64,000 nucleotides of DNA from a virus (IMGVR_UViG_3300044712_001034:30080-94079), one strand, 5' to 3'; positions 12,875 through 32,843 are shown, counted from the first letter of the stretch. Notes: generated by a model not told the origin, from the letters alone. Numbers and translations are program-made.

Positions 12875-13053
12875 TAGACTCCTTTTCTAAAGTCTTTGCT
12901 ATGTTCATAAAATATGTTTCCAAGGGAAACAATACAATTCAGTTCCGTATCTCTAGGGTCATCTGATAGTATGATAATTTCTCCATTCTTTTCTATACGG
13001 AATGGAACAGAGTGCTTAGCCCTTTTATTAATTACTGTAATATACTTTTCCAT
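12874..13053 (-). CDS. hypothetical protein
   Basis: Start reassigned to MEKYIT, 1 nt after polA stop. Confidence 0.55.
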   Translation of the reverse strand: MEKYITVINKRAKHSVPFRIEKNGEIIILSDDPRDTELNCIVSLGNIFYEHSKDFRKGV

Positions 13054-13054
13054 T

Positions 13055-15443: not shown

Positions 15444-15451
15444 ATTTTCTC

Positions 15452-15844: not shown

Positions 15845-15847
15845 ATT

Positions 15848-16135
15848 CTACCACACTTCGTAAGTTGTGTAAAGGAGAATTGTTTCTTCTCCATCAATCA
15901 GGCCAATCTCATATTTGGTTACTTTATGAACACTTATATTTTTAATCTTATCGCTGTTAGATAATTCATCTAGAGTATTTATAAACTTCAAATCATAATC
16001 CATCAGCGGTAAATCATAAAGTAATGTAGCATAAATAGATTTCAATTTTGATACCATATGTCTGATACCAAAAATTGCTTCGATCTTGTGTAATTTATCT
16101 TCGTCAGATAACAATAATTTTACTTTTTCTATCAT
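15848..16135 (-). CDS. hypothetical protein
   Basis: 95-aa ORF. Confidence 0.55.
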   Translation of the reverse strand: MIEKVKLLLSDEDKLHKIEAIFGIRHMVSKLKSIYATLLYDLPLMDYDLKFINTLDELSNSDKIKNISVHKVTKYEIGLIDGEETILLYTTYEVW

Positions 16136-16153
16136 TTATGATATAATCCCTAA

Positions 16154-16984
16154 TTACATAACAGTTTCGAATTTAGGTTTTGAGCGTTCTTTTTCAATCT
16201 GGATTGGATCATCCATCTTATCTGAATAGATCATATAATCACCTTCCATGTATCTCGGATTACGCTCAATCCAATTATTTACAATACTGCTTAGATGATT
16301 TAGTCCTTTAGAAATCGCATTAATAAAATATGCGGCTTCTTTTCGTCTAGCTAGATTTTTATTTTCTGGATTTTGAATACTTGTTAGATACTTAAAACAC
16401 GTTTCTATTACTGTAAATGCTTCTGATAATTGCTTAGCTGTATCTGATTCTTTATTTGTAGATACTTGCCAAGAGTCTTCAGAACCATCTGCACTAACAG
16501 AACGTGTAAATGTTTCAAATTCATCATCTAGTTTTTTAGGGTTGCGATTGATTAAAGTAGTTTCGTAATTACTACGCTCAATCTCTTCATACTCACCTTC
16601 AAGAACTTCAATCTCTTCGTAGCCATTAGCTAACTGACGGGTGGGTACTGGGTTCTTTTCTGGCTTAGGCTCTTCAAGATATTTCAATACTTCTCGTAAA
16701 GAAGTTACACCTTCCAAATGCGCAACGCGTTGCGCATTTTCTGATAGCCTCATATAATTTTGAGCCATACGAATTCTAAAATCACAATTGTTTGCTACCC
16801 AAGGAAGAAACTCTCCGTGTCCCAAACTCTTCTTTACTTCAACAAGAATGTTACCAATTTCGATTGCGTACTGCACCATGTTCTGTGCACTTCGTACAAT
16901 CTCGCCCTGCAACTCGTTTACTCTCGTTGCCCTTGCTTTGTTCACCAACTCAATGTCATTCTGTTCAACTACTTCAATTTGCAT
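16154..16984 (-). CDS. DUF3102-domain protein
   Basis: AIEIGNILVEVK..LGHGEFLPWV...AQNYMRL; start reassigned to MQIEVV (SD AGGAG). Confidence 0.75.
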   Translation of the reverse strand: MQIEVVEQNDIELVNKARATRVNELQGEIVRSAQNMVQYAIEIGNILVEVKKSLGHGEFLPWVANNCDFRIRMAQNYMRLSENAQRVAHLEGVTSLREVLKYLEEPKPEKNPVPTRQLANGYEEIEVLEGEYEEIERSNYETTLINRNPKKLDDEFETFTRSVSADGSEDSWQVSTNKESDTAKQLSEAFTVIETCFKYLTSIQNPENKNLARRKEAAYFINAISKGLNHLSSIVNNWIERNPRYMEGDYMIYSDKMDDPIQIEKERSKPKFETVM

Positions 16985-17015
16985 TTTGTTACTCCTGTTT
17001 GGTTTGTTAGACATT

Positions 17016-17043
17016 ATTATACTCACTTAGTTACGATTGTCAA
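17016..17043 (-). promoter_or_regulatory. sigma70-type promoter
   Basis: TTGACA-N16-TATAAT; flanks match the tRNA promoter. Confidence 0.85.
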
Positions 17044-17156
17044 GTACCAATTTTTATGAGTTTTGCTCTTCTTCAAAGATCTTTACATGTTTATTTATCA
17101 ACAACCTTTTACTGATTATTTTTTATATGTTCCTCATCAAGACCAATTATCCTAAT

Positions 17157-17184
17157 ATTATACACGCTTTTTTAAATTTGTCAA
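17157..17184 (-). promoter_or_regulatory. sigma70-type promoter
   Basis: TTGACA-N16-TATAAT. Confidence 0.8.
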
Positions 17185-17216
17185 GGGGTATGTTCGTGTA
17201 CGTATTCATAAACAAC

Positions 17217-17244
17217 ATTATATACAAAACTTTTAAAAAGTCAA
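17217..17244 (-). promoter_or_regulatory. sigma70-type promoter
   Basis: TTGACT-N16-TATAAT. Confidence 0.75.
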
Positions 17245-17303
17245 GTAGCACTCTAGTACACAACAGCAGACCCTACACAGGTCAAAGACCTACATATAGG
17301 TAC

Positions 17304-17331
17304 TTGACAAATGTGAAATATGGTGTATAAT
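17304..17331 (+). promoter_or_regulatory. sigma70-type promoter (rightward)
   Basis: TTGACA-N16-TATAAT. Confidence 0.85.
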
Positions 17332-17858: not shown

Positions 17859-18090
17859 GTTCTATAAAGATGATTGCGTACCATGTAAGATGTTATCTAA
17901 GATGTTGTTAGATACTAGATTTCCAGCAGGAATAGATTACATAGAAGTAGATGTAAAGAATATAGATAACTTCGATTTATTACAAGAGTACTCTATTACT
18001 AGCGTACCAGTTTTAGCTTTTGAAAATGGAAATAAGTTAATTGGAATGAAATCTAAAAAGGAAATTGAGGAATTTTTAAACAATGCTTAA
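17845..18090 (+). CDS. thioredoxin/glutaredoxin-like protein
   Basis: CVPC active site, SVP cis-Pro motif. Confidence 0.85.
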   Translation: MKLYKFYKDDCVPCKMLSKMLLDTRFPAGIDYIEVDVKNIDNFDLLQEYSITSVPVLAFENGNKLIGMKSKKEIEEFLNNA

Positions 18091-19075
18091 TGTTTTATCA
18101 TTATTTGATGGTATGTCTTGTGGACAACTTGCATTAGATAAAGCCGAGATAAAGTACAACAATTATTTTTCATCAGAAATAGATAAATACTCTATTAAAG
18201 TAGCACAAAAGAATTACCCTAATACGATACAATTAGGAGATATTAATAATTGGAAATCTTGGAAGCTTCCTAAGATAGATTTACTTATGGGAGGATCGCC
18301 TTGTCAAGGATTTTCTTTTGCTGGAAAGAAGTTAAACTTTGAAGATCCAAGAAGTAAGTTGTTCTTTACTTTTGTAGAAATTCTAAAAGAACTAAAGCCA
18401 AAATACTTTCTTTTAGAAAATGTAAAAATGAAAAAAGAATGGCAAGATATTATTACAGAATACTTAGGAGTTGAGCCTACTCTAATTAATTCAGCATTAG
18501 TTTCAGCACAAAATAGAGAACGTTTGTATTGGACAAACATTCCTAATATTACTCAACCAGAAGATAGAAAAGTACTACTAAAAGATATTGTAATGTTTAA
18601 TGATTACCCTGTAGTAATTCATAATATTTACGGAGGGTTCAAAGAAGATTTTGTAAGAGTTTTTGAAAATAAATCACCAACCATAAGAACATCAGCAGGT
18701 GGTGGTCATATACCCTCTTTTGTAAAACATACTCTTTCAAGCAAAGAAATTTCTTACATGAATAGAGAAGTAAAAGATGGTAGAACTCATTGGGATTTTT
18801 CACATCATTCATCAATAGATAAAGATAAATCTAGTGCTGTTGTAGCTAACTTCTTTAAAGGTGTGCCATACAATGTTCTAAAGGATTGGGATTGTATAAG
18901 AAAATTTCATCCGATAGAATGTGAAAGATTACAAACAGTTCCAGATAATTATACTGAAGGAGTAAGTGATACACAGCGTTATAAGATGTTAGGAAATGGT
19001 TGGACAGTTGATGTTATTGCACATATATTAAATTTTATGGAGATTGAAGATGGCATTATTACAGAAGAATGGTAA
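18083..19075 (+). CDS. dcm: DNA cytosine-5 methyltransferase
   Basis: SLFDG, GGSPCQG, ENV, QNRER, LGNGW. Confidence 0.93.
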   Translation: MLNVLSLFDGMSCGQLALDKAEIKYNNYFSSEIDKYSIKVAQKNYPNTIQLGDINNWKSWKLPKIDLLMGGSPCQGFSFAGKKLNFEDPRSKLFFTFVEILKELKPKYFLLENVKMKKEWQDIITEYLGVEPTLINSALVSAQNRERLYWTNIPNITQPEDRKVLLKDIVMFNDYPVVIHNIYGGFKEDFVRVFENKSPTIRTSAGGGHIPSFVKHTLSSKEISYMNREVKDGRTHWDFSHHSSIDKDKSSAVVANFFKGVPYNVLKDWDCIRKFHPIECERLQTVPDNYTEGVSDTQRYKMLGNGWTVDVIAHILNFMEIEDGIITEEW

Positions 19076-19363: not shown

Positions 19364-20059
19364 ATGGAACCAGAAAACAAAAGACATGCACCAAGCAGAA
19401 ATAAATTACGTTCTCTAAAACAATATAGAGAAATGCCAGAAGAAGAATTTAGTGAAGCATACTCTCAATTAGTTTTTGGAGCGAGTAGAGATAGTGTTAT
19501 TAGAGAAAAGTATGATCGTTTGATGAAACAATTTGAAGAAGAATATGATCTATCGGAGATGTTACCAAATGATAGAGTTATTCTAAAAAATCTAATCAAT
19601 GCTATGTTGCAACTAGAAGATTATGAAGCACAGCTAATGCTAGTTTCTAAAGAAGGGTTTAACAATAATAACATTGTTATTGTTAGAGAATTGAACAATG
19701 TTTGTAAAGCTCTTCGTAATGATATTTCTGAAATGCAAGATGATCTAGGTATTACTAGGAAAAGTAGAAAGAACGATAAAGAAGCTTCTGTACTAAATAC
19801 TATCGAGGATCTAAAAAAGAAAGCACAACAGTTTTATCAACAGAAGATGCAGTACATTATTTGTGAAAATTGCGGAACTCTTTTAGCAACTGTTTGGTGG
19901 ATGAAACCAGAAGATGTAAAATCTAAAATAGTAGTTCATTGTACTAGAATTCTAGACGATGATAAACAATGTAATTTCACTAAAGCTTATACAGCTAAGG
20001 AAATTTTAGAAATGGGCGGTAGTAATAGAAAAGAATTATTACCAGAAAGCGTGAGGTAA
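19364..20059 (+). CDS. probable terminase small subunit with C-terminal Zn ribbon
   Basis: Helical core ending DDLGITRKSR, CxxC..C..C; first gene of operon leading to terL; inference. Confidence 0.45.
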   Translation: MEPENKRHAPSRNKLRSLKQYREMPEEEFSEAYSQLVFGASRDSVIREKYDRLMKQFEEEYDLSEMLPNDRVILKNLINAMLQLEDYEAQLMLVSKEGFNNNNIVIVRELNNVCKALRNDISEMQDDLGITRKSRKNDKEASVLNTIEDLKKKAQQFYQQKMQYIICENCGTLLATVWWMKPEDVKSKIVVHCTRILDDDKQCNFTKAYTAKEILEMGGSNRKELLPESVR

Positions 20060-20061
20060 AC

Positions 20062-20259
20062 ATGAAACTATGGGTAGTAGGTAGAGTATTAGATATGGAT
20101 TATTGGGAATTCATCGGAGTTTTTGATGATGAACAGCTTGCTGTAAACGCATGTTTTGACACCCTATGCTTTGTTGGGCCTTGTATTTTAAACGAAAATG
20201 TAGGAAGGGAAACTATCGAATGGCCTGATAGCTATTACCCAAGAAAGGATAACTTATGA
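20062..20259 (+). CDS. hypothetical protein
   Basis: 65-aa ORF, SD GAGG. Confidence 0.6.
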   Translation: MKLWVVGRVLDMDYWEFIGVFDDEQLAVNACFDTLCFVGPCILNENVGRETIEWPDSYYPRKDNL

Positions 20260-20987
20260 TTACGTTTAGTCAGTTAGGAAAATTTGGCAGATTCGGAAAT
20301 CAACTTTGGCAAATAGCTAGCACTATAGGTATAGCTATTAAAAATAATCAAGACTTTGGATTCTCGGAGTGGGAATATCAAAAATACTTTGAACATTCTT
20401 TACCCTTATATAATCAAAAGAAACCAACTAGAAGAGTACCAGAGTTATCTTCTGGATATGTTGATACCACCCTAAAAGATTTTGTAGATCATGATTTACA
20501 AGGTTATTTTCAAAGCTATAAATACTTTGAACATTGTAAAGATTTAATAGAATATTTTTTTGAACCAATAATCGAAACAAATGATCACGGTCTAGATCAA
20601 ATAGCAATTCATGTTAGAAGAACTGATTATTTGTCTCTTGGTCATATTCATCCTAATCTTACAATGGATTATTATAATAAGGCTATGAAATTATTTCCCG
20701 GAAAAGAATTCAAGATATTCTCTGATGACATTGAGTGGTGTAAACAAAACTTTGATAATGATACTTGTACATTCGTTATTGAAAATCCACAGAATGATCC
20801 AGTATTAGATTTCTTTTATATGTCAAAACACGCAGGATTTATTATTGCTAATAGTTCGTTCTCTTGGTGGGCCGCTTGGTTAGCTAAAGATAAACCAGTG
20901 GTGTCTCCTAACGTTTGGGCCTATAATGAACCTAGAGAAACGATAGAAGATCGTATTCCTCCTGGGTGGGAAAGGATTTCAATATGA
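20256..20987 (+). CDS. GT11 alpha-1,2-fucosyltransferase-like
   Basis: GRFGNQ, GYFQS, HVRRTDY, FSDD, NSSFSWW. Confidence 0.92.
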   Translation: MITFSQLGKFGRFGNQLWQIASTIGIAIKNNQDFGFSEWEYQKYFEHSLPLYNQKKPTRRVPELSSGYVDTTLKDFVDHDLQGYFQSYKYFEHCKDLIEYFFEPIIETNDHGLDQIAIHVRRTDYLSLGHIHPNLTMDYYNKAMKLFPGKEFKIFSDDIEWCKQNFDNDTCTFVIENPQNDPVLDFFYMSKHAGFIIANSSFSWWAAWLAKDKPVVSPNVWAYNEPRETIEDRIPPGWERISI

Positions 20988-21568
20988 GAATAAATGAACG
21001 GGGCTATTGGGAAGGTAAAGAAGGTTTACCTCACGGGGTAGATCTTGGGTTAGCAAAAGAGTTAGCTAGATTTTTTTCAAAGAATAACGCAGATTTAGTA
21101 TTTGATTTAGGATGCGGAAATGGATTTTATACGCATTATCTAAATAATTACGGTGGTATGTTGTGTGAAGGTTATGACGGTAATCCGTTTACCAAAGAAT
21201 TAGCTGGTGATAATTGTTATGTAGCTGATTTATCTGTTCCGCAAGAGTTTGGAAAAGCTAATTGGGTTATGTCATTAGAAGTAGCAGAACATATTCCAGA
21301 AGAATTTGAAGATGTTTTCATTGATAATCTTCATAGACATAATACAGAGGGTATTGTTATCAGTTGGTCTATTCCTACTTTCGGTGGGGATGGGCATGTA
21401 AATCCAAAAGAAAATTCTTATGTGATTGATAAGTTTACCAAGCTAGGTTATAAGTATGATGAAGATTCTACAATAACACTTAGATACAGTTGTGCTGGTT
21501 ATCCTAATCCCTGCTGGTGGTTTGGCTTTACTATCTTTGTTTTTAGAAAGGATAAAAATGCCATTTAG
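20984..21568 (+). CDS. class I SAM-dependent methyltransferase
   Basis: DLGCGNG, SLEVAEH, GHVN. Confidence 0.88.
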   Translation: MRINERGYWEGKEGLPHGVDLGLAKELARFFSKNNADLVFDLGCGNGFYTHYLNNYGGMLCEGYDGNPFTKELAGDNCYVADLSVPQEFGKANWVMSLEVAEHIPEEFEDVFIDNLHRHNTEGIVISWSIPTFGGDGHVNPKENSYVIDKFTKLGYKYDEDSTITLRYSCAGYPNPCWWFGFTIFVFRKDKNAI

Positions 21569-22067
21569 CAAATTTGATTTATATAAAAATAATTACTTTG
21601 TAGAAACTGGTAGTTATTATGGTAATGGAATTCAGTCAGCTATAGATGCTGGATTTAGAAATGTAATCTCTATAGAGATTACAGATAAGTATTTTAGACA
21701 TTGTGTAAATAGATTTAGAAATAATAAAAATGTAACCTTAGTCTTCGGAGACTCAGCAGAGAAGCTTTCTGAAGTTATAAGCAATATAAAAGAGCAAATA
21801 ACATTTTATCTAGACGGTCATTGGGATTTAGACGAGGACGAGACTAGAGGTATTTTTGATTTCCCAATCTATAAAGAACTAGAAATTATAGCAACCCATC
21901 CAGTAAAAACACATACTATAATAATAGATGATGTTAGATTATTTAAAGCTTTGTGGAATGTTTCAGAAGATATTATTGTTAATAAATTGTTAGAAATAAA
22001 TCCACAATATGTAATAGAATATGCAGATGGTTACACAGACAAAGATGTACTTATAGCACACATATGA
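21558..22067 (+). CDS. SAM-dependent methyltransferase-like protein
   Basis: FVETGSYYG, SIE, GDS, FYLDGH, IIIDD. Confidence 0.75.
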   Translation: MPFSKFDLYKNNYFVETGSYYGNGIQSAIDAGFRNVISIEITDKYFRHCVNRFRNNKNVTLVFGDSAEKLSEVISNIKEQITFYLDGHWDLDEDETRGIFDFPIYKELEIIATHPVKTHTIIIDDVRLFKALWNVSEDIIVNKLLEINPQYVIEYADGYTDKDVLIAHI

Positions 22068-22720
22068 AAACATACTTTACTTGTTATGCTGATGAAAACT
22101 ACGAGAACCAGCAAGAAGAAATACTAAAAGAGTGTAACGAGTTTGATTATAAAGTTCCATATAAAAAGCAATTTCTAATTGATAGTGGTTTTTACGAATA
22201 TCAAAAACACTCTCTAACTTCTTTAAAGAATGGTGGGTGCGTTTGGAAACCATACATAATTTTAGATTTATTTCTTAAAATAGATCCGGGAGATTTGCTA
22301 GTTTATTTTGATTGTGGAGATAAGATATTACCAGGCTACCTATCTTTTATAAAAAGTAGAATTAGACAGGATACTTTTTTTATTACAAGCAATTTTGTAA
22401 ATAGATACTGGACAAAAACTTTCTGTTTCAAGTATATGGAGTGCAACGAAGACAAGTATAAAGATACGCTACAATTAGATGCTGGACAGATTGGATTTAT
22501 AAAATCTCCCTTTACTGAAAGCTTATTACAGGAGTGGAATAACTACTGCTCGAACTATCTAGTGCTGTTAGATGATCCGTTAGGAGAACGAGACGATCAT
22601 GTTATAAGGCACAGCAGAGATCAGAGTATTCTTACGAACCTGCAAGTAAAGTATAATATACCAGCATCTTCTATCAACGAAGTAGAGCGTAAGTATACCA
22701 TTCATAATTACAGAGGATAG
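22064..22720 (+). CDS. putative GT-A fold glycosyltransferase
   Basis: WKPYII, YFDCG, HSRDQS motifs; cluster context. Confidence 0.6.
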   Translation: MKTYFTCYADENYENQQEEILKECNEFDYKVPYKKQFLIDSGFYEYQKHSLTSLKNGGCVWKPYIILDLFLKIDPGDLLVYFDCGDKILPGYLSFIKSRIRQDTFFITSNFVNRYWTKTFCFKYMECNEDKYKDTLQLDAGQIGFIKSPFTESLLQEWNNYCSNYLVLLDDPLGERDDHVIRHSRDQSILTNLQVKYNIPASSINEVERKYTIHNYRG

Positions 22721-22721
22721 G

Positions 22722-23471
22722 ATGATCTATTTAATTACAGGAACAGATGAAAAGTACTACCCAAAAATTTATCCATATCTAGAAACTATTAATAAGTATT
22801 CTGCTTTTAAAAATATTCTATTATGTGTTGGATTTAGCAAAGATTCGGAATTTGATAATATAACTTATAAATCAATTCCTAAAGATTCTCTTACTGATAT
22901 TACAACTAATCCGTGCGTCCAAGCAGGAGAGTTCCTACCTTACGTCTCCTTTAATGATGACGATATAATTATATTTACAGACGGAGACATTAGATTACAG
23001 CGAGCTTTTACAAACGAAGAACTAAATAAAGTTTCTAATGTAAAGCATGATGAAGTTTTGATAGGACCAAATGCTACCCATTCAAACAACACTTTACTGA
23101 ATGAAGCTAATGGTCTAAATAGATATTGTAGCGACGAGTATTTAAATTCTCTATTTAGTGAGTACGGGATAAACAAAAACTCAGCTACGCTTAATGTTGG
23201 TGTAATAATTTGTACTACAAAAACTTATAAAAGAATTTATGAGCTTACCTATGAGATATATAATAAATATCCAAAAGTAACAGATCATATGGCGAGGCAA
23301 CAATGGTATATAAACTGTGCTATATATTCTTTTTGTAATGTTAGTTTATTACCATTTAGTTTTCACTCTCACCCACACAACGGATCACAACCTGATATGT
23401 CATTTGAAGCTGACCACACAATGTATGTAAATGGCGAAAGAGTATTATTTAGGCACAAGTACTATGTTTAA
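22722..23471 (+). CDS. putative GT-A fold glycosyltransferase
   Basis: IIFTDGD (DxD), LNVGV, QQW; cluster context. Confidence 0.6.
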   Translation: MIYLITGTDEKYYPKIYPYLETINKYSAFKNILLCVGFSKDSEFDNITYKSIPKDSLTDITTNPCVQAGEFLPYVSFNDDDIIIFTDGDIRLQRAFTNEELNKVSNVKHDEVLIGPNATHSNNTLLNEANGLNRYCSDEYLNSLFSEYGINKNSATLNVGVIICTTKTYKRIYELTYEIYNKYPKVTDHMARQQWYINCAIYSFCNVSLLPFSFHSHPHNGSQPDMSFEADHTMYVNGERVLFRHKYYV

Positions 23472-24063
23472 TATTAATGATACAAACGGAGATAGTAAGC
23501 TTTTAGCTCATATTCAATACACATTACTAGATAAGTTTCCAAATGAGCAATTATATGGGGTGGAGTTCGGAGTTGCTTTTGGTGGTGGTATAGAACAAAT
23601 ATGTTCTATATGGAAAGATAAAGGATTTGTATTAGGTTATGATACCTTTACTAATCATCCCGGATTTTTAGCAAAGGATGAAAACTCTCCTGAAGCTACA
23701 GCTATGGATGGGTGGTATCAGAAGCTAGGAAAAGATAAGTTATCAAAAAAATATATACAAAGTGAGTTGGAAAAATCATTTAGCAATTTTGAACTAATCG
23801 AAGGACTAGTAAACAATAAAACTAAAAAGAGAGATTACAAGTATCACTATGTTTTATTGGACTTTGATTTAGCAGAGTCAATGCAGTACGCTTATGATCT
23901 TATTAAAGATAATTTGCATCCCGGTGGTTTTATTTGTGTTCACGATATTATTCCAGATACGCATATGCCAATGCTAAACTCCTGGTGGTTTAACGCTATA
24001 TTACCAAAAGAAAACTATAAGCTATATAGATATGGAAAACACTTGGGGGTTTATCATGTATGA
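23464..24063 (+). CDS. TylF/MycF-like sugar O-methyltransferase
   Basis: VEFGVAFGG, GYDTF, LDFD, PGGFICVHD. Confidence 0.75.
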   Translation: MFNINDTNGDSKLLAHIQYTLLDKFPNEQLYGVEFGVAFGGGIEQICSIWKDKGFVLGYDTFTNHPGFLAKDENSPEATAMDGWYQKLGKDKLSKKYIQSELEKSFSNFELIEGLVNNKTKKRDYKYHYVLLDFDLAESMQYAYDLIKDNLHPGGFICVHDIIPDTHMPMLNSWWFNAILPKENYKLYRYGKHLGVYHV

Positions 24064-25099
24064 TTATTTAATAGTAGGTGCTGGAATAACCGGATCTGTG
24101 ATAGCCCATGAAATGCACAAGCTAGGTAAAAAAGTACTAGTTATAGATTCTAGAGATCATGTTGGCGGTAATTGCTTTTCTAAAGATATAAATGGTGTTC
24201 ATGTAAATCTGTATGGTGGTCATTTCTTTCATACGAATAGCAAAAGTATCTACGATTATGTAAATAATATCTGCCCTTTTACTCCTTATTATCATAGAGT
24301 TAAAGTAAATTACAAAGATAACATATACTCTTTCCCTATAAATATGCTGACATTTTTTCAGCTTTGGGGAACCATTACACCGGAACAAGCTAAAGCAAAA
24401 ATAGAAAGTGTAAAGCTAAATATAGTTCCAACTAACTTCGAAGAAAAGGTTTTATCTATGGTTGGAGAAGAAGTATATTATAAGTTTTTCTATGGATATA
24501 CAAAGAAGCATTGGGGAGTAGAACCTAAAGAGTTATCCGCAAAATTGATTAGTAGAATTCCTATTAGATTTACTTATGATGATAGATACTCTAGCGACCT
24601 TTATCAAGGAATGCCTGAGCAAGGATATGATTACTTTTTTAATAAGCTATTAGATGGGATAGAAGTTAAACTTGATACACAGTATAACTATGAAACTATA
24701 GCTAGTAAAACTATTTATACCGGATCTATAGATCAGTATTATAAATATATTTATGGTACGCTTCCATACAGAAGTGTGTATCACACATACTCCGATGAAG
24801 ATACGGGAGCAGCTACTATAAACTACACTAGTGAAGATATTAAGTACACAAGGCAAATAACTTATAACTATTTTTATCCGCAAAATAGAGCAGAAAAAGT
24901 AACTGCTACAGAGTTTGCATCAGATTACGGACCTCCCTACTATCCAATAGATACAGAAAAAAGTAAAAGTCTTTATAATAAATATAAAGAAATAAAAAAT
25001 GATTCTGTAATTTTTGCTGGAAGATTGGGAACTTACGCTTACCTAGATATGGATAAAGCATTAGCTAGTGCATTAAAGATTGTAAAGGATGAATTATGA
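24056..25099 (+). CDS. glf: UDP-galactopyranose mutase
   Basis: IVGAGITG, HVGGNC, YGGHFFHT, YTKKHWG, PYYP, GRLGTYAYLDMD. Confidence 0.95.
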   Translation: MYDYLIVGAGITGSVIAHEMHKLGKKVLVIDSRDHVGGNCFSKDINGVHVNLYGGHFFHTNSKSIYDYVNNICPFTPYYHRVKVNYKDNIYSFPINMLTFFQLWGTITPEQAKAKIESVKLNIVPTNFEEKVLSMVGEEVYYKFFYGYTKKHWGVEPKELSAKLISRIPIRFTYDDRYSSDLYQGMPEQGYDYFFNKLLDGIEVKLDTQYNYETIASKTIYTGSIDQYYKYIYGTLPYRSVYHTYSDEDTGAATINYTSEDIKYTRQITYNYFYPQNRAEKVTATEFASDYGPPYYPIDTEKSKSLYNKYKEIKNDSVIFAGRLGTYAYLDMDKALASALKIVKDEL

Positions 25100-26025
25100 T
25101 TATTTCGCAAACCCCATTAAGGGTGTCTATTATAGGTGGGGGAACTGATTTACCAGAATGGTTTGAGCATAATGAAGGTTGTGTTGTTGGATCATCAATA
25201 GATAAATATATTTATGTAATAGTAAATAATAGATTTGATGATAAGATTTCTGTTGGTTATTCTAAGCAAGAAACTGTAGATTCTGTAGAAGAAATTCAAC
25301 ACGATTTAGTTAGAGAAGCTGCGAAAGCTACAGGAATGACCAAAGGATTTGAAGTAAAAACTATGGCTGATGTTCCTTCACAAGGCTCTGGTTTAGGATC
25401 TTCTAGTGCTGTTTTAGTTGGGTTACTAAATGCTTTTTATCATTATCAGAATAATCCGAAAGAACACTCTCACTTAGCTTATCAAGCATTTTATATAGAG
25501 AGGTATGTTTTAGGTAGAAATGCTGGAATGCAGGATCATATGTTCTCTTCTTTTGGTGGACAGCTTAGACTATCGTTTTCTAACGATCTTCCTTATCACG
25601 AACCTGTAAAACTTTCAGACGATAACTTGTTTTTGCATTACACAGGTATAACTAGAAATGCTAATGATATTCTAAAAGAGCAAGCTTCTAGTATAGAAGG
25701 AAAAGAAGAGTTATATAAAAAGCTAACCAAATTAGCTAAAGAGTTTAATCAAGAACATATTTGTGATGTTCTTGGAAATGGTTGGGCAATAAAGAAACAA
25801 CTAGCTGATGGTATTTCAAATACAGAAATAGAAAATATGATAAGCATCGCTGAATCAAGTGGAGCTATGGCATATAAAATTTTAGGTGCTGGTGGGGGAG
25901 GATTTCTTTTATCTTATGTTCCAAAGGATCTACAAGACCTATTCTTAGATAAGATGAAAGATTATAAACAACTCCCGTTTAGGTTTACAAATTATGGGAC
26001 AAGGATTATTTACAATGGGATATAA
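25096..26025 (+). CDS. hddA: D-glycero-alpha-D-manno-heptose-7-phosphate kinase (GHMP)
   Basis: TPLRVSIIGGGTD, GSGLGSS, GMQD, GAGGGGF. Confidence 0.88.
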   Translation: MIISQTPLRVSIIGGGTDLPEWFEHNEGCVVGSSIDKYIYVIVNNRFDDKISVGYSKQETVDSVEEIQHDLVREAAKATGMTKGFEVKTMADVPSQGSGLGSSSAVLVGLLNAFYHYQNNPKEHSHLAYQAFYIERYVLGRNAGMQDHMFSSFGGQLRLSFSNDLPYHEPVKLSDDNLFLHYTGITRNANDILKEQASSIEGKEELYKKLTKLAKEFNQEHICDVLGNGWAIKKQLADGISNTEIENMISIAESSGAMAYKILGAGGGGFLLSYVPKDLQDLFLDKMKDYKQLPFRFTNYGTRIIYNGI

Positions 26026-26503
26026 TATTGCGTTTGATATTGACAATGTAGCTACTATGATAGCTAATTGCAGAGGTATAGTTTATACCTGTGGAAATGG
26101 TGGAAGCTCTTCAGCAGCATCACATTTTACGCAGGATTTAATAAAAGCTTGTGGAATAAAATCTATCTGTATTACAGATAACGTTCCTTTTATTACTGCT
26201 ACTGCAAATGATGATAGTTATGATAATATCTTCAGAAATTTTATGGAGTTGTTTTGGACAGCGCAAGATCTACTAGTTCTTATTAGTGGTAGTGGTAATA
26301 GTGTAAATTTACTAAAAGTTACTGAAGCTATGCGAGGTAAAGTAAAGACTATAGCTATTGTTGGTTTTGATGGGGGAGAATTAAAAAACATGGTTGATTA
26401 TGTTATTCATGTTCCAATCTCAGATATGAGGAAAGCAGAAGACAAACATATTCAGGTTTTACATGAGATTATTGATAGGATTGGAGATGAACCCATTCGA
26501 TAA
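26015..26503 (+). CDS. gmhA: sedoheptulose-7-phosphate isomerase (SIS)
   Basis: CGNGGS...ASHF, TATAND, ISGSGNS, GFDGG, EDKH. Confidence 0.9.
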   Translation: MGYNIAFDIDNVATMIANCRGIVYTCGNGGSSSAASHFTQDLIKACGIKSICITDNVPFITATANDDSYDNIFRNFMELFWTAQDLLVLISGSGNSVNLLKVTEAMRGKVKTIAIVGFDGGELKNMVDYVIHVPISDMRKAEDKHIQVLHEIIDRIGDEPIR

Positions 26504-27689
26504 ATTTTCAAAGATATTTTGCATCAATTTAGATAGGCGTGTAGATCGTTGGGAACAAGCTCAAAAAGAATTTGAAAAAGCTGGAATACTAGATAAAGTC
26601 GAAAGATTTTCAGCATACAACCTTCCTTATGCTACAGCTAGAGGGAACCACCTAAGTCACGCCGCTTGTATAAAAAAAGCCAAAGAAAATAATTGCGAAA
26701 ATGTTTTGATATTTGAAGATGATGTTGAGTGGCTAAATGATCCGCTAATTTTGAAAAGGGTGGATTTACCTACTGATTGGGATCTTTTTTACCTTGGAAT
26801 AAATATGGATAGATATAGTGCAACGCAAGTTAATTACCATCTAGCCAAGATAAATGGTGGGTATTCTACACACGCTTATGCAATCAATAAAACATTATTT
26901 GATACTCTTATAGAACTAAATGAGGATACGAAGACCGTTCATAATGATGTTAGAATGGCTTATGAAATAATTCCAAATTATAATTGCTATGTATCTGTAC
27001 CATTACTGGCGGGACAAAGAGATTCTTACTCGGATATTCAAGGAAGAAGAATGGATTCTAATCAAGTGTTTTTAGAGAGGTTCGATCAACACCTTACAAG
27101 AAAGAAATTTAAAGTTGCTGAGCCTACATTTTGTACATTTGTAACCCCGACAATAGGTCGTAAAACATTACCAAGAACTGTGCAATCTTTTATAAATCAA
27201 ACAGATTGGAGTTGGAAAGCTATTGTTATGTTTGATGGTAGAGATATAAACTATGAGTGTGATAATGACCACGTTCTAATAACTAAATGTGAGCAACAAA
27301 ACTCTGCTGGACTAACAAGAAATGAAGCTATGAAGTTAGTAACTACTGATTGGATAGCATTTTGTGATGATGATGATTGGCTAGCTGAAGATTATTTAGT
27401 AACACTAAGACAATATGTAGAAAATAATGATGTAGTTATCTTTACTTATCGTGATGTCAAGACAGGTAATACTCAACCTCCTGTTTATATAAATGACATA
27501 ATTAGTTGTAATGTTGGAATTAGCTTTGCTGTAAGAACGGATTTTGTTATAAAGAATAATATACAATTTCCAAAGGGCGCAATTGAGGATTTTGCATTTC
27601 TCGATGCTTGTAGAAATGCAGGAGCAAGATATGTTCTCACTCACCAAATTAAATATTTAGTGGGTGGGATCGGAGGTAATCAATTATGA
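26487..27689 (+). CDS. GT25-GT2 fusion glycosyltransferase
   Basis: N-half INLDRRVDR, LSH, FEDD, THAY; C-half TPTIGR, RNEA, FCDDDD. Confidence 0.85.
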   Translation: MNPFDKFSKIFCINLDRRVDRWEQAQKEFEKAGILDKVERFSAYNLPYATARGNHLSHAACIKKAKENNCENVLIFEDDVEWLNDPLILKRVDLPTDWDLFYLGINMDRYSATQVNYHLAKINGGYSTHAYAINKTLFDTLIELNEDTKTVHNDVRMAYEIIPNYNCYVSVPLLAGQRDSYSDIQGRRMDSNQVFLERFDQHLTRKKFKVAEPTFCTFVTPTIGRKTLPRTVQSFINQTDWSWKAIVMFDGRDINYECDNDHVLITKCEQQNSAGLTRNEAMKLVTTDWIAFCDDDDWLAEDYLVTLRQYVENNDVVIFTYRDVKTGNTQPPVYINDIISCNVGISFAVRTDFVIKNNIQFPKGAIEDFAFLDACRNAGARYVLTHQIKYLVGGIGGNQL

Positions 27690-28336
27690 CAATAACACTC
27701 TGCATCCCCACGCTTTCTCGATACGATCTTTTGAAGAGATGCTTAGAGTCTGCTGAAGCCGGTATTATAAAACCAGACAGATATTTAGTAATAGACAATG
27801 GTGGAAGTTTAGATTTAAAATTACCAAAATTAGAAGTTGTAAAATTTGGTTATAACTTAGGTGTGGCTAAAAGCTGGAATTACTTTATTAATTATACGGA
27901 AGAAGTAAGAGTTATTTGTAATGATGATATTTTCTTTCATCCAGAAACACTAAGAAATCTTTTAGCAGAGTATGAAGGAAATCAAATAACTTGTACTAGG
28001 GATTTAGAAGCTAGCTCCTTTTCTTTATTTACTATTGGAGATGAGTTAGTAAATACTGTTGGATTATTTGATGAATCCATTTCTCCTGGTTATGCTTACT
28101 TTGAAGATAATGACTATGCTTATAGAATGGAGCTTCTAGGTTATCAAATCCACAGAGTACATAACTGCTCTTGTGGTCATTTTGGAAGCGCTACCCTAAA
28201 GAACTATTCTTCTAGAGAAATGGAAGATCATCATAATAAATTTAGAATTGCACAAAATAATTATCAAAAAAAGTGGGGTGGATTACCTGGAAAGGAAGAA
28301 TATAAAACACCTTACAACGGAGTAAATAATGAGTAA
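27686..28336 (+). CDS. GT2 glycosyltransferase
   Basis: IDNG, NLGVAKSWN, NDD, GLFDE, FEDNDY. Confidence 0.88.
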   Translation: MTITLCIPTLSRYDLLKRCLESAEAGIIKPDRYLVIDNGGSLDLKLPKLEVVKFGYNLGVAKSWNYFINYTEEVRVICNDDIFFHPETLRNLLAEYEGNQITCTRDLEASSFSLFTIGDELVNTVGLFDESISPGYAYFEDNDYAYRMELLGYQIHRVHNCSCGHFGSATLKNYSSREMEDHHNKFRIAQNNYQKKWGGLPGKEEYKTPYNGVNNE

Positions 28337-28613
28337 ACAATTAAGTGGACAGACTACAGTAACTACTGCTGGAACTGCTGTAGTTTTAGGTACTGGCGTT
28401 ATTAATGACGCACTAATCGTAAAAGCTTTTGCAACTAATAGTGGACTAATCTATGTTGGAAACGATGGAGTTAACGATGTAACTAGTACAAACGGATTCG
28501 TATTATCAGCAGGTAATGAAGTTAGATTTGAATTAGTTGGCAGACTCGAAGACATTTATGTTGATTCTTCAGTCAATGGACAAAAAGTAAGCTGGATAGT
28601 TCTTAACGTATAA
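28329..28613 (+). CDS. small beta-rich protein, possibly virion-associated
   Basis: 94 aa, Thr/Gly/Val rich, NSGLIYVG, GFVLSAG. Confidence 0.55.
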   Translation: MSKQLSGQTTVTTAGTAVVLGTGVINDALIVKAFATNSGLIYVGNDGVNDVTSTNGFVLSAGNEVRFELVGRLEDIYVDSSVNGQKVSWIVLNV

Positions 28614-28622
28614 AGGAGACTT

Positions 28623-29675
28623 ATGACTAAATATCTTGATACCTGGACCAGAGATGCTAAGGTTGGTAAGCTAAACCTAATTGATCGCTATAATCTATGG
28701 CGAATGAAAGAAGAGCCTACCCTAATTGGTACTCTTGATCCAACGACTTTAGCCAGACAAATTGATATTTCACATTGGCAAGGTGATGTTGATATTGCCA
28801 AGATGAAAGCAGAAGGAGACATTTCAATGGTGTTTCCAAAAGCTTCGGATGGCAAACAAGTACAAGCTGGTGATCCAACTTATGCTAATAACTATGTTGA
28901 TGATTGGCTTTATCGTAATGTGCAGAAATGCTACGATGCTAAAATAGCTTGTGGACCCTACCATTATGTACAACCATTTTTTCCAGATTACACTCTAGAA
29001 GGTATTGTAGCTTGGAACATGAAAACTCTTCACGCAGCTTTAGACCCACTAACTCCAAAGAAAAGCTATCATGCAATTGTTCTTGATGTTGAAGAAGCTA
29101 CTGGTACAGAACCAAATCGAAGTGATGTTGTACTAAAGATGATGGAAGCTATTGCGGCTGATCCAAAGATGTCGCAAGTTCCTGTAATTGTTTATTCCTC
29201 AATGAGTATGTACAACTCTTATTATCCAAAACTTAGGGACCAGTTGTCTTTCCCCGGAGCTAATAAAAACTTATGGATGGCTCAATGGGTTTACAATACT
29301 GTAACTAATACAACTTGGGCTAATGTTGTTTCTACTATTATGCCTTCTATTAGTATGAAAGTTCTTACTCCCGGTTTTGCAACTTGGAAGTTTCTACAAT
29401 GGAGTTCTTCACTAATTCTTCCCGGTGGAAGTGGGAGAACTGATGTTAATTTCTACAATGGAACTAAAGCAGCCTTATATTCTTGGCTAGGATTTGATCC
29501 CGGTACTGTAGTTCCACCTCCCCCACCCCCACCAGCTACAGATCTAACAGCTAGAGTAGTAGCACTAGAAACTAAAGTAGCGGAACAGGAAACAAAACTC
29601 ACCGCACTAACAACTAAGGTAGACGCAGGACATACACACTCTGTTACTATCCCAGTTGTAACTACATCTAAGTAA
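28623..29675 (+). CDS. GH25 muramidase (endolysin)
   Basis: IDISHWQG, KASDG, YHY, LDVE, LWMAQW, QWS, DVN; Pro linker plus coiled-coil tail. Confidence 0.9.
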   Translation: MTKYLDTWTRDAKVGKLNLIDRYNLWRMKEEPTLIGTLDPTTLARQIDISHWQGDVDIAKMKAEGDISMVFPKASDGKQVQAGDPTYANNYVDDWLYRNVQKCYDAKIACGPYHYVQPFFPDYTLEGIVAWNMKTLHAALDPLTPKKSYHAIVLDVEEATGTEPNRSDVVLKMMEAIAADPKMSQVPVIVYSSMSMYNSYYPKLRDQLSFPGANKNLWMAQWVYNTVTNTTWANVVSTIMPSISMKVLTPGFATWKFLQWSSSLILPGGSGRTDVNFYNGTKAALYSWLGFDPGTVVPPPPPPPATDLTARVVALETKVAEQETKLTALTTKVDAGHTHSVTIPVVTTSK

Positions 29676-29681: not shown

Positions 29682-29705
29682 TGGGAGGGATTAAAATCCC
29701 TCCCA
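29682..29705. other. perfect hairpin upstream of terL SD
   Basis: TGGGAGGGATT-AA-AATCCCTCCCA, no U-tract on plus strand. Confidence 0.7.
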
Positions 29706-29715: not shown

Positions 29716-31272
29716 ATGGCAATCATAGAAAAAATATATGGACCAGAGGATTTAGCATTATACGAAATACTAAGAAATCCCTGTCTTTGCACAGAGTTTA
29801 TAGAAAACTTTGATAAACAAAAATACGAAGAAGAGTTCGAACTTACTTGGTATCAGAAAGAATTGATGGGAGATTTTAATTCTTATGTGTCAGTTGTAGC
29901 TGGTCGTAGTGCTGGTAAAACTGTATCTTTAGTTTCTATAATTCGCTGGATTTTAGTATATAATGTTTTCCCCTCCGATTATATTATTTATTTAGTACCA
30001 TCTAAAGTACATCTTGAACCTGTGTGGTCCGGATTAATAAGAACATTTAGATCTAATACTTTTCTAAAACATTTTATACAACCTAATGCAGGTATCAATA
30101 GTAGTGATTTTAAGATTACATTATTGAACCAAGCAGTATTAATGTGCCGTATCGCAGGTCAAACTGGTACTGGTGTTTCTGTTATTGGTTTGCACACACC
30201 ATTCTTTATTGTTGATGAAAGCGGTTATCAACCTTGGGGATCTTGGATAGAACTACAACCTACAGTAAATACATTTACTTCCGGGTTTAGACTTATGGTT
30301 TCTGGCGTTCCAGATGGTAGACGAGAGAACTCAGTTTGTTATCATTGTGATAGAGAGAACTCTAACTATTCTAAACATAGAATTAGTTCTGATATGAACC
30401 CCAGGTTAGCAGAAGCAGATAAGCAGAGAGCTATAGAACAGTATGGGGGAGAAGATAGTGATGACTTTACCCACTTGTGGAAAGCTCAACATGGTAAGCC
30501 TGTATTTGCTTTGTTTGATAGAACTTCGTTTAGTATTGGATCGGACCCAGTTTATAAACTAATTCTAAATGGTTTACAACTAGAAGACAATCTAAATGAA
30601 ATTGTTTCTAGAATTACAGTCTTCCCGCCAATCCCAAATAAGAGTGATAAAGTAATACTTGGAGTGGACTTAGGTTATACAGAACCAACAGCTATTATAA
30701 TTCTATATTTAGAAAATTCTGGAAGGCTTAGATTTCACGGAAGAATTAGATTAGATAAAGTTTCTTATCCAGTTCAGAAAAGCTTCATAGATGCTTTGGA
30801 TACCAAATACAATCCTATTATTATTGGAGTTGATGCTGGTGGAGTAGGCAAACCAGTAGTTATGGACCTTTTGGAGCATCAAGACTTCATGCACAAAAAC
30901 TATTCAAAAAGAGTAGTTCCAATAGATTTCTCTACTTCACTTGTTATAGGTATAGATGGTAATGGCGAAGAAATTAAATCTAAGACAAAACCATTTGCTA
31001 CTTCAGTTTTACAGGATTATGCTAATAATCATAAGCTAGTATTCTCCCATACAGACTTAGAATTAGTTACAGAACTAGAAAGAATGACTTATACTAAAAC
31101 TCCTACGGGAGATATTGTGTATAGAACTGTTACTAATAAGGGTGGAAAAAGAGGTGAAGACCACTTTACTTCTGCTTTACTTTGTGCTGTATTAGCTTAT
31201 TATTTGAAAAATGATTTTATGACTTATAAATCTCAAAAGAAAACGCTGGCTAGTCCAGGTTGGTTTGGATAA
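29716..31272 (+). CDS. terL: terminase large subunit
   Basis: Walker A GRSAGKT, Walker B FIVDE, nuclease GVDLG, DH. Confidence 0.9.
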   Translation: MAIIEKIYGPEDLALYEILRNPCLCTEFIENFDKQKYEEEFELTWYQKELMGDFNSYVSVVAGRSAGKTVSLVSIIRWILVYNVFPSDYIIYLVPSKVHLEPVWSGLIRTFRSNTFLKHFIQPNAGINSSDFKITLLNQAVLMCRIAGQTGTGVSVIGLHTPFFIVDESGYQPWGSWIELQPTVNTFTSGFRLMVSGVPDGRRENSVCYHCDRENSNYSKHRISSDMNPRLAEADKQRAIEQYGGEDSDDFTHLWKAQHGKPVFALFDRTSFSIGSDPVYKLILNGLQLEDNLNEIVSRITVFPPIPNKSDKVILGVDLGYTEPTAIIILYLENSGRLRFHGRIRLDKVSYPVQKSFIDALDTKYNPIIIGVDAGGVGKPVVMDLLEHQDFMHKNYSKRVVPIDFSTSLVIGIDGNGEEIKSKTKPFATSVLQDYANNHKLVFSHTDLELVTELERMTYTKTPTGDIVYRTVTNKGGKRGEDHFTSALLCAVLAYYLKNDFMTYKSQKKTLASPGWFG

Positions 31273-31277
31273 AAAAT

Positions 31278-32843
31278 ATGGAAATTACCGTACAAGACGC
31301 AACAAAAGAAGATCTAATAGCTTCGGAACAATTTAATAAACTAGCTTCCGCATCTATTAATACGTTAGGAGGTTCTACGAGTTCTAATCCCTGGACAGCT
31401 TCAGATGTTGATAAATTAGAACTCAATACGGACGACTATCATAAGATAGTTAAAGCGTGCAGATTCTTCTACAAAAAAGACCCTCTGGTTTCCTCTACAA
31501 TAAATAAACTTGTAGAGGTAGGTATTAATAGACTTATGTTTAGTAAGAATGGTCTTACTGAAAATGAATATAAAATCTTTTTAGGTCTTAGGGAAAAGTT
31601 AGAAGAGTTTGCGGAGAGCATGGCTTTAGAGTATTTAATTTCTGGATTAGTAGTTCCAGAAATCCAATTCGGGAGATTAAATAAAGAACAAATTAAAAAT
31701 CTAGGTATCTATGGGCTAAAGAAATATGATAGTCTAATGTTACCTGCTACTATGTATATCAGAGATCCAGCTACTATAGAAATAAAAGTAAATCCATTTT
31801 CTGATAGTCCTAGTTACTTTTTACTTGTTCCTCCTGAAGTTGTTGACTTCATTCTAAATGAGGGAAGATATGGTGATGGTACTTATGATAGAGTTGCTTA
31901 TCAAAAGCTACTAGCATTATATCCTGAGTTTGTTTTAGCGATAAAGCAAGGGGTCAGAAAATTCCTCATTGAGAAAGATACCGATCTTATTATAAGACGC
32001 AAAGTTCAAACAGATGGTCCTACGCCAACTCCTTATCTATCCGCAGCTTTGGAATCTTTAAAGCATAAACGTAACTTACGTAGAATGGATTATGCTATTG
32101 CCTCTAGAGTAATTGGAGCTATTCAATTATTCAAGCTAGGTGATAAAGATTTCCCAGTAACAGAAGATGATAAGGATGCTCAGTTTGGAGCGATCAAGGA
32201 TCAGATGCTTTGGCGAGATTATTCTGGAAAAGATATAGAAAGAATTTTCCAATTGTTTGCTAACCATACTTTACAAATCGAATGGGTTGTTCCAGATACA
32301 CAAGCCATGCTAGATGAACAGAAGTATATTAGCGTAAACCAAGATATTATTTATGCTTTAGGATTTCCAAGAATTCTAATTACAGGCGAGTCCGAAAAGA
32401 CAGGAACATCAGATCCACAGTACGCTATGATGTCGCCAGCTAAAACAATGGAAAACTTTAGACGAAAGATTATTAAAGTTATTCAATCCATAGTTAGAAG
32501 AGTTGCTGAAGAAAATAGCATAAAAAGTGTTCCAGAAGTAAAGTTTAAACCACTCACACTATTCGATCATGCTACACTTCTAAAGAGCTTAGCCGATCTT
32601 TATGGTGGTGCTAATATTTCTAGATCTACTTATGCTGAAGAATTAGGATACGATTGGAATGATGAAACTGAACAAAGAAAGATTGAAAAAGATAAGCTCG
32701 AATCTCTTGGGTTGGATGAGTTTGCTCCTAAACCCTTTAGTAATCAGCCCGGTCAGGGTCCAGCAGGAAGTGGTAAAACAACCACGGAAAAGAAGCCATC
32801 TGATGTAAATAACACCAGTAACAATAAAAATGGGTCTAATTAG
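31278..32843 (+). CDS. portal protein
   Basis: About 520 aa directly after terL; portal-like layout with low-complexity C-terminus. Confidence 0.8.
   Translation: MEITVQDATKEDLIASEQFNKLASASINTLGGSTSSNPWTASDVDKLELNTDDYHKIVKACRFFYKKDPLVSSTINKLVEVGINRLMFSKNGLTENEYKIFLGLREKLEEFAESMALEYLISGLVVPEIQFGRLNKEQIKNLGIYGLKKYDSLMLPATMYIRDPATIEIKVNPFSDSPSYFLLVPPEVVDFILNEGRYGDGTYDRVAYQKLLALYPEFVLAIKQGVRKFLIEKDTDLIIRRKVQTDGPTPTPYLSAALESLKHKRNLRRMDYAIASRVIGAIQLFKLGDKDFPVTEDDKDAQFGAIKDQMLWRDYSGKDIERIFQLFANHTLQIEWVVPDTQAMLDEQKYISVNQDIIYALGFPRILITGESEKTGTSDPQYAMMSPAKTMENFRRKIIKVIQSIVRRVAEENSIKSVPEVKFKPLTLFDHATLLKSLADLYGGANISRSTYAEELGYDWNDETEQRKIEKDKLESLGLDEFAPKPFSNQPGQGPAGSGKTTTEKKPSDVNNTSNNKNGSN

Follow-up and report, generated by a model that had tools for sequence, protein, structure and literature searches.

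The 64,000-nucleotide (nt) viral sequence IMGVR_UViG_3300044712_001034:30080-94079 (hereafter the window) is the right-hand 64 kb of one 94,079-bp virus record, for which CheckV gives a completeness of 100%. Eleven genes on its + strand, at positions 20256-28336, all encode sugar enzymes or methyltransferases. This cluster is one phage's version of a variable glycan island. The lineage that carries the island, at a fixed site directly upstream of terL, is widespread, consists of uncultured phages and has genomes of roughly 80-95 kb. The reading that we favour, with slightly better than even confidence from the in silico analysis, is that virion proteins are glycosylated in the cytoplasm with a glycan that varies between phages. 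Judged by its TerL, its portal and an open reading frame (ORF) of tape-measure size (1774 amino acids, aa), the source is a tailed phage; the G+C content of the window is about 30-41%.

A variable glycan island directly upstream of terL

TerL has more than 567 relatives, at 57-81% identity and on contigs commonly reaching about 80-95 kb. A scan of IMG/VR with a single TerL sequence gave nothing, and one with an alignment gave 80 loci, which we mapped against the window proteins (L-numbers denote fetched loci). The conserved backbone runs in the order p231, island, TerL, portal, protease, p191, capsid, p165, p169, GT4, p142, p373 and p399. In the 25 relatives that hold both flanks, with TerL proteins 55-81% identical to that of the window, the interval from p231 to TerL measures 1.5-9.6 kb. 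The island ORFs of these relatives and the 13 of the window, 188 in total, fall into 68 families, 43 of them singletons, and the median pairwise Jaccard index of island family content is 0. When 150 ORFs from the islands of 23 loci were tallied by Pfam family, sugar-nucleotide and glycan enzymes dominated: 11 GDP-mannose 4,6-dehydratases, 13 epimerases, 9 RmlD, 9 sugar C-methyltransferases, 9 FkbM and 11 GT2 proteins, in addition to TylF-type methyltransferases, GT11 and nucleotidyltransferases. Enzymes resembling those of natural-product pathways (sugar C-methyltransferases, radical S-adenosylmethionine (SAM) and ATP-grasp enzymes) also occur in the islands of relatives. No close relative was found among GenBank phages by megablast of the cluster or tblastn of TerL. 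A metagenome scan with P0007 likewise gave none, and a second scan gave one close fragment, L023.

The island of the window, 9.65 kb including p94 and a GH25 muramidase gene, is among the largest, and to judge from its shared parts it looks mosaic. GT11, MT1, P3, GT25-GT2 and GT2 are common to the window, L088, L089 and L112, whereas P4, the TylF-like methyltransferase and Glf are common to the window and L023. In this fragment, the module of which is the closest relative's, the TylF-like homologue (55% identical) likewise stands between P4 and Glf, both heptose genes are missing, and Glf is followed directly by GT25-GT2. Among the loci examined, the adjacent GmhA-HddA pair, and HddA at all, occurs at this site in the window only; GmhA alone recurs in L057 and L094. 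Homologues of the FkbM-like gene exist in L044, L084 and L115, and those of P3 in the islands of eight relatives. At the right end, 35 of 58 relatives have a homologue of the GT2 or the GT25-GT2 gene close to TerL, no more than two ORFs upstream of it. GT25-GT2 is a single 408-aa ORF in the window and two adjacent ORFs (about 190-225 aa) in the majority of the relatives that possess it, more than ten in number (L046, L056, L057, L085, L086, L088, L094 and L108-L113); either the window gene arose by fusion or that of the relatives was split.

The commonest island type (L062, L074, L083 and L098) contains up to four paralogues of about 305-315 aa and two ORFs of about 275-300 aa. The island of L062 encodes a dehydratase, two methyltransferases (one of them a C-methyltransferase) and six proteins without a name, about 190-320 aa long. 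The paralogue copies in L062 have no Pfam match, and such paralogues may represent unnamed transferase families.

A first-pass annotation of the window had described eleven tightly coupled genes. All are present on the + strand, where neighbours overlap by 4-41 nt or stand 1 nt apart, and translational coupling extends to TerL and portal; no gene between 20062 and the portal gene lies on the - strand, and neighbours there show overlaps of 4-41 nt or gaps of at most 40 nt. Profile searches agreed with its family calls for GT11, Glf, HddA, GmhA, GT25-GT2 and GT2. The first gene (20256-20987) encodes a GT11 glycosyltransferase of the alpha-1,2-fucosyltransferase family (PF01531, 3.4e-22, 79.5 bits), a short protein that covers profile positions 93-296. 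It is followed by a class I SAM-dependent methyltransferase, MT1 (20966-21568), which has weak Methyltransf_23/11 matches and whose profile, A8, matches cyclopropane-fatty-acyl-phospholipid synthase at 3.7e-6, and by an FkbM-like methyltransferase-like protein (21558-22067) with the motif VETGxxxG. The ORF of the latter could start at 21492, the ATG at 21558 being the likely start, and its best PDB profile match is an O-methyltransferase (weak, 5e-3). The TylF/Methyltransf_24-like sugar O-methyltransferase gene lies at 23431-24063; its PF13578 match (1.4e-4) is below cut-off, and 28 of its 30 nearest named Atlas clusters carry TylF/Methyltransf_24. The three methyltransferase-like genes of the first-pass annotation thus held for the class I and TylF-like members, and the FkbM-like one is weakly supported.

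The two genes that it had called GT-A-like were both upheld. P3 (22064-22720), a GT-A-like nucleotide-sugar transferase without a Pfam match, belongs to a virus-rich Atlas family whose nearest clusters are 85-100% viral. Its structural neighbours are of GT2 and GT34 type, and some of them, from phages and giant viruses, are fused to GT2 or GT10. P4 (22722-23471), by AlphaFold2 (AF2) and Foldseek, is a GT-A glycosyltransferase with a retaining GT6/GT8-like fold. Sequence searches of the PDB with P3 and P4 gave nothing useful, and structure-based searches were needed.

The remaining genes begin with Glf, UDP-galactopyranose mutase (24032-25099; PF03275, 4.7e-48, 164 bits; NAD_binding_8), which scores 282 bits against TIGR00031 over 1-375 of 378 positions and just misses the cut-off of 303.75. 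An HddA-type GHMP heptose kinase (D-glycero-D-manno-heptose 7-phosphate kinase; 25096-26025; NF049969, 2.6e-36, 126 bits) has its best PDB matches in the heptose kinases 3k85, 4n3o and 4usk (1e-29 to 1e-26). The adjacent GmhA-type sedoheptulose-7-phosphate isomerase (25994-26503; TIGR00441, 8.6e-27, 94 bits) has phosphoheptose isomerases as all of its top twelve PDB matches (best 7e-21). Both heptose proteins score far under the NCBIfam equivalog cut-offs. The two-domain glycosyltransferase GT25-GT2 (26463-27689) combines an N-terminal PF01755 match (30.5 bits, short) with a C-terminal PF00535 match (45.8 bits), and the GT2 glycosyltransferase (27686-28336; PF00535, 3.4e-7) is the semi-conserved right-end gene.

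The left border is formed by p231 (19364-20059, +; 231 aa), with a helical N-terminal part and a C-terminal zinc ribbon of four Cys residues that are invariant in 20 sequences; a homologue stands upstream of the island in the 25 relatives. The first-pass annotation took this gene for a probable terS, a call that could not be confirmed, because Pfam, PHROGs and a PDB profile search all failed to link p231 to terminases. We also considered p231 as a hidden TET-like oxygenase and rejected the idea: these searches gave no oxygenase match either, the protein is helical with a zinc ribbon, and no HxD motif was seen by eye. The right flank agrees with the earlier lysin and terL assignments. A segment at 28329-29675 (+) contains p94, a 94-aa ORF with no assigned function, and the GH25 muramidase gene (28623-29675; PF01183, 3.3e-15; phrog_291), a probable endolysin. 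The conserved border itself (29716-32843, +; phrog_2 and phrog_2739) consists of TerL (29716-31272) and portal (31260-32843). Among the lineage loci examined, p94 and GH25 occur at this site in the window only, and the 80 lineage loci, which cover TerL and at most 10 kb of flank, contain no GH25 homologue; the lysin of the relatives must be encoded elsewhere or be a different enzyme.

The conserved transferase, sugar donors and related modules

Outside the island, among the head-tail joining genes, lies the gene for GT4 (37345-38514, +; phrog_2170, 3.3e-45), a retaining glycosyltransferase of the GT-B fold. Of the 19 relatives with 3 kb or more of downstream sequence, 16 have it after p165, in the order p169-GT4-p142, and it is kept even in L059, where the island is only 1.5 kb and two genes long. 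Therefore, GT4 behaves as a core gene of the lineage and the island as an exchangeable accessory. Against the PDB, a profile of 18 GT4 sequences matched the chlorovirus NY-2A protein B736L (3oy2) over its full length (residues 7-388) at 3.6e-36, the second-best chain reaching 5e-9. The AF2 model (pLDDT 93.2) gave the same result in Foldseek, with 3oy2 at a TM score of 0.81 and about 18% identity in the structural alignment; BshA and MshA trailed by eight orders of magnitude. E286 and E294, with EX7E spacing, are invariant in the 18 sequences. By these sequence and model comparisons, B736L is the closest to GT4 among solved structures, by a wide margin. B736L binds GDP-mannose (PMC9614988). We regard GT4 as a candidate initiating transferase.

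P4 has 41 homologues, none with a Pfam domain, and tblastn found no match to it among GenBank phages. TDGD, QQW, H215 and H245 are invariant in the family. The AF2 model (pLDDT 92.8) retrieved LgtC (GT8), alpha3GalT and GTA/GTB (GT6) as top Foldseek matches, the best structural matches being retaining galactosyltransferases. In about 26 of 33 other loci, Glf follows P4 either directly or within about 1.1 kb. As judged from these comparisons, P4 represents a GT-A family without a Pfam model that is tightly coupled to Glf, and because of this coupling it is a candidate galactofuranosyltransferase.

The heptose route, in contrast, appears incomplete. GmhA and the HddA-type kinase are present, as the first-pass annotation had proposed for a GDP-heptose pathway; however, profile searches of the genome gave 0 matches to a GmhB-type phosphatase (TIGR01656) and 0 to HddC or nucleotidyltransferases (PF00483 and PF12804), and a GT2 search run in the same way recovered both GT2 domains as a positive control. 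As far as these profiles detect it, the route is two steps (GmhB and HddC) short. The earlier description of the cluster as self-contained was therefore overstated: these enzymes were not found, and GT4 lies outside it.

Similar modules turned up elsewhere, and the comparison of related contigs places sugar genes in the packaging and head modules of several phage lineages. The P4 loci, viral and metagenomic, number 33, and 29 of them belong to one unrelated siphovirus group, some being the same record fetched from both collections. Between this group and the cultured Microcystis phage Mae-JY09, the capsid proteins share 45% identity. In loci of the group with enough flank, the genes run TerL, portal, MuF, scaffold, capsid, a 120-aa gene, GT4, GT2-like, (methyltransferase), P4 and Glf, followed by connector genes and tape measure; the module is therefore inside the structural operon, right behind the major capsid gene. 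Mae-JY09 has GT4 at the same position as the siphovirus group. In Synechococcus phage S-CBS4, GT4, a galactosyltransferase and a methyltransferase follow the portal gene, and in Tetrasphaera phage TJE1 a nucleotidyltransferase, an epimerase, a methyltransferase and GT4 precede terS. Flavobacterium phage immuto is an exception to the head or packaging position, with a multi-gene glycan cluster after its lysis genes. These four are cultured phages with parts of the module. One 42,634-bp IMG/VR contig (L013 and L022) has the GT4-GT2-like-P4 module at both ends, which points to terminal redundancy or a concatemer in the assembly of a genome that measures about 39.5 kb (CheckV 98% complete).

The acceptor of the glycan

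If virion proteins are the acceptors, soluble enzymes would use host sugar precursors during infection. Glf would convert UDP-galactopyranose to UDP-galactofuranose. GmhA and the HddA-type kinase would feed sedoheptulose-7-phosphate into the heptose route, of which the phosphatase and nucleotidyltransferase steps would have to come from the host. In the cytoplasm, the conserved GT4 would start the chain by adding a sugar to a virion protein; the six island transferases, one two-domain (GT11, P3, P4, GT25-GT2 and GT2), would lengthen the chain, with P4 probably as the galactofuranose transferase; and up to three methyltransferases would cap it. Assembled particles would carry an O-methylated glycan with galactofuranose and possibly heptose, and exchange of the island would make its structure differ from one related phage to the next. 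In this scheme, we infer the acceptor, the sequence of steps, the donors of the sugars and when the genes are expressed.

Glycosylation of virion proteins best explains the presence of sugar genes in the packaging and head modules of four lineages, and it also best explains why one transferase is a conserved head-module gene and the rest vary in the manner of a surface antigen locus. The interpretation of the first-pass annotation, that the glycan is built on virion proteins, is partly supported. Virion glycosylation is nevertheless a prediction from the genes, and several points weigh against it. When GT4 and P4 were compared by tblastn with 50,697 phage records, no mycobacteriophage matched, and therefore the proven system of those phages is not homologous for these two genes. 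The capsid candidate (ending LKVA) and the tail-tube candidate (ending GAKP) share no C-terminal tag. The GT4 homologue of Synechococcus phage S-EIVl adjoins a primase gene rather than head genes, and the acceptor of B736L may not be the capsid protein (PMC9614988). The two-step deficit of the heptose route, described above, counts on the same side. Moreover, restriction pressure on DNA or selection on the host surface would also predict a variable island, and host flippases could export a phage-modified, lipid-linked glycan.

The last of these points leads to the host envelope, the glycan of which (lipopolysaccharide (LPS) core or O-antigen precursors, teichoic acids, capsule or S-layer glycans) the island might remodel during infection. 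Soluble transferases would then modify intermediates of the host, either cytoplasmic or lipid-linked, for export by host transporters, and the benefit could be a block to superinfection or progeny that do not stick to cell debris. GT11, GT25, GT2, GmhA/HddA and Glf are typical of LPS, capsule and S-layer glycans, and variable sugar loci are usual for surface polysaccharides. The heptose route needs a host GmhB and nucleotidyltransferase, so that host glycan metabolism would be involved anyway. However, a hydropathy scan of all ORFs found none with at least four predicted transmembrane helices in the whole 94-kb genome, and therefore there is no flippase, polymerase or initiating polyprenyl-phosphate transferase genome-wide; a ligase is likewise missing from the genome, and each of the eleven island genes falls into a soluble family. 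This agrees with the first-pass view of cytoplasmic enzymes without export, which now extends to the complete genome. The genome gave 0 matches to tyrosine integrases (PF00589; serine recombinases were not searched), which argues against a lysogen that would benefit and, as had been proposed, against lysogenic serotype conversion. Furthermore, the genes lie within, and overlap with, the packaging and head modules instead of forming a moron with its own promoter and terminator, and GT4 is conserved in the head-tail module. Envelope remodelling is therefore, in our judgement, unlikely.

Glycan hypermodification of DNA is known from T-even phages, from RB69/DLP3 and from MT/5mYOX/GT clusters; the DNA-borne sugars known are mono- to trisaccharides, and the phosphosugar isomerase of the phage DNA route is presumably of the SIS type. 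An oligosaccharide on the bases of the phage DNA, for evasion of restriction, is accordingly a further alternative. A C5 cytosine methylase gene (18083-19075; PF00145, 6e-50) lies 1.2 kb upstream of the island. In published accounts, phage DNA-glycosylation pathways use Glf (in Rhizobium phage RL38J1), a phosphosugar isomerase with a kinase, and several glycosyltransferases, and heptose can be among the sugars added (PMC13326640; 10.1101/2023.12.21.572611); one account also reports clusters of this kind close to terminase and structural genes (10.1101/2023.12.21.572611). These observations, which also tell against a protein acceptor, make DNA a serious rival. In the same accounts, however, the acceptor is made by a 5mYOX/TET or ThyA homologue (10.1101/2023.12.21.572611; PMC13326640). 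Six-frame Pfam searches for the ThyA family and for Tet/JBP (5mYOX) gave 0 matches in this genome and ten related records, namely five of the same lineage (one 100% complete, with terminal repeats) and five of the second siphovirus group; the ThyA search controls gave matches, and the Tet/JBP search had no positive control, so that a very divergent oxygenase was possibly missed. With that limit, no known enzyme for turning DNA bases into sugar acceptors was found, in keeping with the first-pass reading. In a Pfam survey of 62 of the ORFs outside the island, which matched 33 families, the first 25 included nothing in this connection beyond DNA methylases, dUTPase and deaminases. The T4 alpha- and beta-glucosyltransferases are not in the top 50 structural matches of GT4, and seven transferases with up to three sugar-type methyltransferases imply a bigger, capped glycan than DNA is known to carry. 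We thus consider DNA an improbable acceptor.

Finally, the acceptor might be a non-virion protein of phage or host, or a soluble or lipid small molecule, for example a signal, a defence inhibitor or an adhesin. The sugar C-methyltransferases, radical SAM and ATP-grasp enzymes in the islands of relatives would suit such a product, as would the possibility that B736L acts on something other than the capsid protein (PMC9614988). However, the island has no carrier, synthase or export gene, and this explanation accounts in no way for the position inside virion-gene modules in four lineages. We give it very little credence.

Genome context, known systems and implications

The same 62-ORF survey detected DNA polymerase A, DnaB, RecA and class II ribonucleotide reductase, as well as dUTPase, dCMP deaminase and N6/N4 DNA methylase, and one of the surveyed ORFs has an Intein_splicing match. 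Both C5 and N6/N4 DNA methylases are thus present in the phage genome. The left arm and window positions 1-17000 contain genes for dCMP deaminase, dUTPase, a dCTP-deaminase-like protein and a nucleoside 2-deoxyribosyltransferase-family protein, without ThyA. We counted 14 tRNA genes. Hosts suggested by metagenome-assembled genome bins (Ignavibacteriales, Brevinema-labelled and Bathyarchaeota) are mutually inconsistent, the sequences probably being mis-binned, and were rejected.

Four sigma-70 consensus promoters (TTGACA, 16 nt, TATAAT; three with 12/12 and one with 11/12 matches) are clustered at 17016-17331, one on the + strand and three on the - strand. At this point, the replication genes, on the - strand, and the + strand block leading into the island diverge. 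The perfect consensus matches at about 17.3 kb are the strong promoter-like sites closest to the island, and no + strand terminator-like site exists between about 17.3 and 31.1 kb. Late expression of the island is suggested by gene position and by this absence. A palindromic hairpin at 29682-29705 (TGGGAGGGAT...ATCCCTCCCA; 10-bp stem with 6 GC pairs), in the 40-nt gap between GH25 and terL, scored as terminator-like on the - strand only.

Relatives L037, L049, L070 and L110 have an uninterrupted capsid homologue of 300-308 aa. In the window (34488-36235), only the C-terminal 216 aa of the capsid protein are found as an ORF, downstream of a LAGLIDADG endonuclease ORF (34689-35477), which is consistent with an intron-split capsid gene. 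Four TerL relatives (P0072, P0102, P0124 and P0163) are 861-906 aa long, with LAGLIDADG or intein-splicing domains; therefore, inteins invade terL in this lineage. In some relatives, a second variable site lies between p165/p169 and GT4 (L110, 7568-11598; L049, 11236-15663; L037, 7035-9735). It was considered as a further sugar locus and discarded: it holds 3-6 ORFs (up to 705 aa), and ten ORFs had no informative Pfam match.

To our knowledge, glycosylation of phage particles has been demonstrated only for some mycobacteriophages, in which it alters antibody recognition. These phages glycosylate capsid and tail-tube proteins with their own transferases (Freeman et al. 2023, cited through PMC11256854 and PMC12582341). 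In Che8, Corndog and Myrna, the phage-encoded transferases are cytoplasmic, a methyltransferase accompanies them in some of the phages, and export genes are missing (PMC11256854; PMC12582341); the present phage, with its seven transferases, likewise has no export machinery, and a glycan coat on capsid and tail proteins is, for it, a proposal. In contrast to the mycobacteriophage systems, with which it shares neither detected GT4/P4 homologues nor a common C-terminal tag, the present cluster is much larger (11+1 genes), has sugar-nucleotide steps of its own (Glf, GmhA and HddA), and combines a fixed variable island by terL with a conserved head-tail GT4 in a genome of low G+C content.

In chloroviruses, virus-encoded enzymes of the cytoplasm glycosylate the capsid protein (PMC9614988). 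B736L of NY-2A and A546L of PBCV-1 (PDB 3OY2) resemble GT4 over the full length in sequence and structure, including the EX7E glutamates. Soluble virus-encoded transferases work with sugar methyltransferases in the cytoplasm in both cases, on our reading of the phage genes, and giant-virus structural neighbours of the P3 family are fused to GT2 and GT10. The differences are the algal hosts and the N-linked glycans on Vp54, which are chlorovirus features. Clusters for DNA hypermodification (Pyle et al. 2023 preprint; Lee et al. 2026, PMC13326640) share with the island several glycosyltransferases of LPS or teichoic-acid type, Glf, the phosphosugar isomerase and kinase, a nearby C5 methylase and a close terminase gene. 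However, the enzyme set found here is far larger, with methyltransferases of sugar-acting types, and lacks a detectable acceptor-forming enzyme.

The island also resembles bacterial O-antigen and capsule loci in having conserved flanks (here p231 and TerL), variable sugar genes between them and mosaic sub-modules. Here, however, there is no Wzx/Wzy, ABC transporter, initiating transferase or ligase, and the locus belongs to a virulent-type phage, inside its packaging and head block. With the GDP-D-glycero-alpha-D-manno-heptose pathway of S-layers and capsules it has in common the adjacent GmhA and HddA-type kinase genes, but not GmhB and HddC, and L023 is without both heptose genes.

What is new is a lineage-wide variable sugar island at a fixed site, a B736L-like core GT4, the P4-Glf pair in which P4 comes from a family without a Pfam model, and the presence of galactofuranose and heptose genes in the island. 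If virion proteins are indeed the acceptors, many environmental phages, infecting quite different hosts, would bear glycan coats. These would vary among close relatives as O-antigens do, a sign that the surface of the particle is under strong selection, for instance from grazers, host decoys, adsorption to debris or defence systems, and the initiating enzyme would link phage and giant-virus glycosylation. We tentatively go one step further, in a proposal that we hold possible but short of probable: the conserved initiating GT4 and the exchanged island by terL may together form a "virion serotype locus" that gives each phage a different methylated coat, here with galactofuranose and heptose. 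If this is true, autonomous cytoplasmic glycosylation of virions would be no mycobacteriophage peculiarity; it would be ancient, subject to diversifying selection, and shared between phages and giant viruses.

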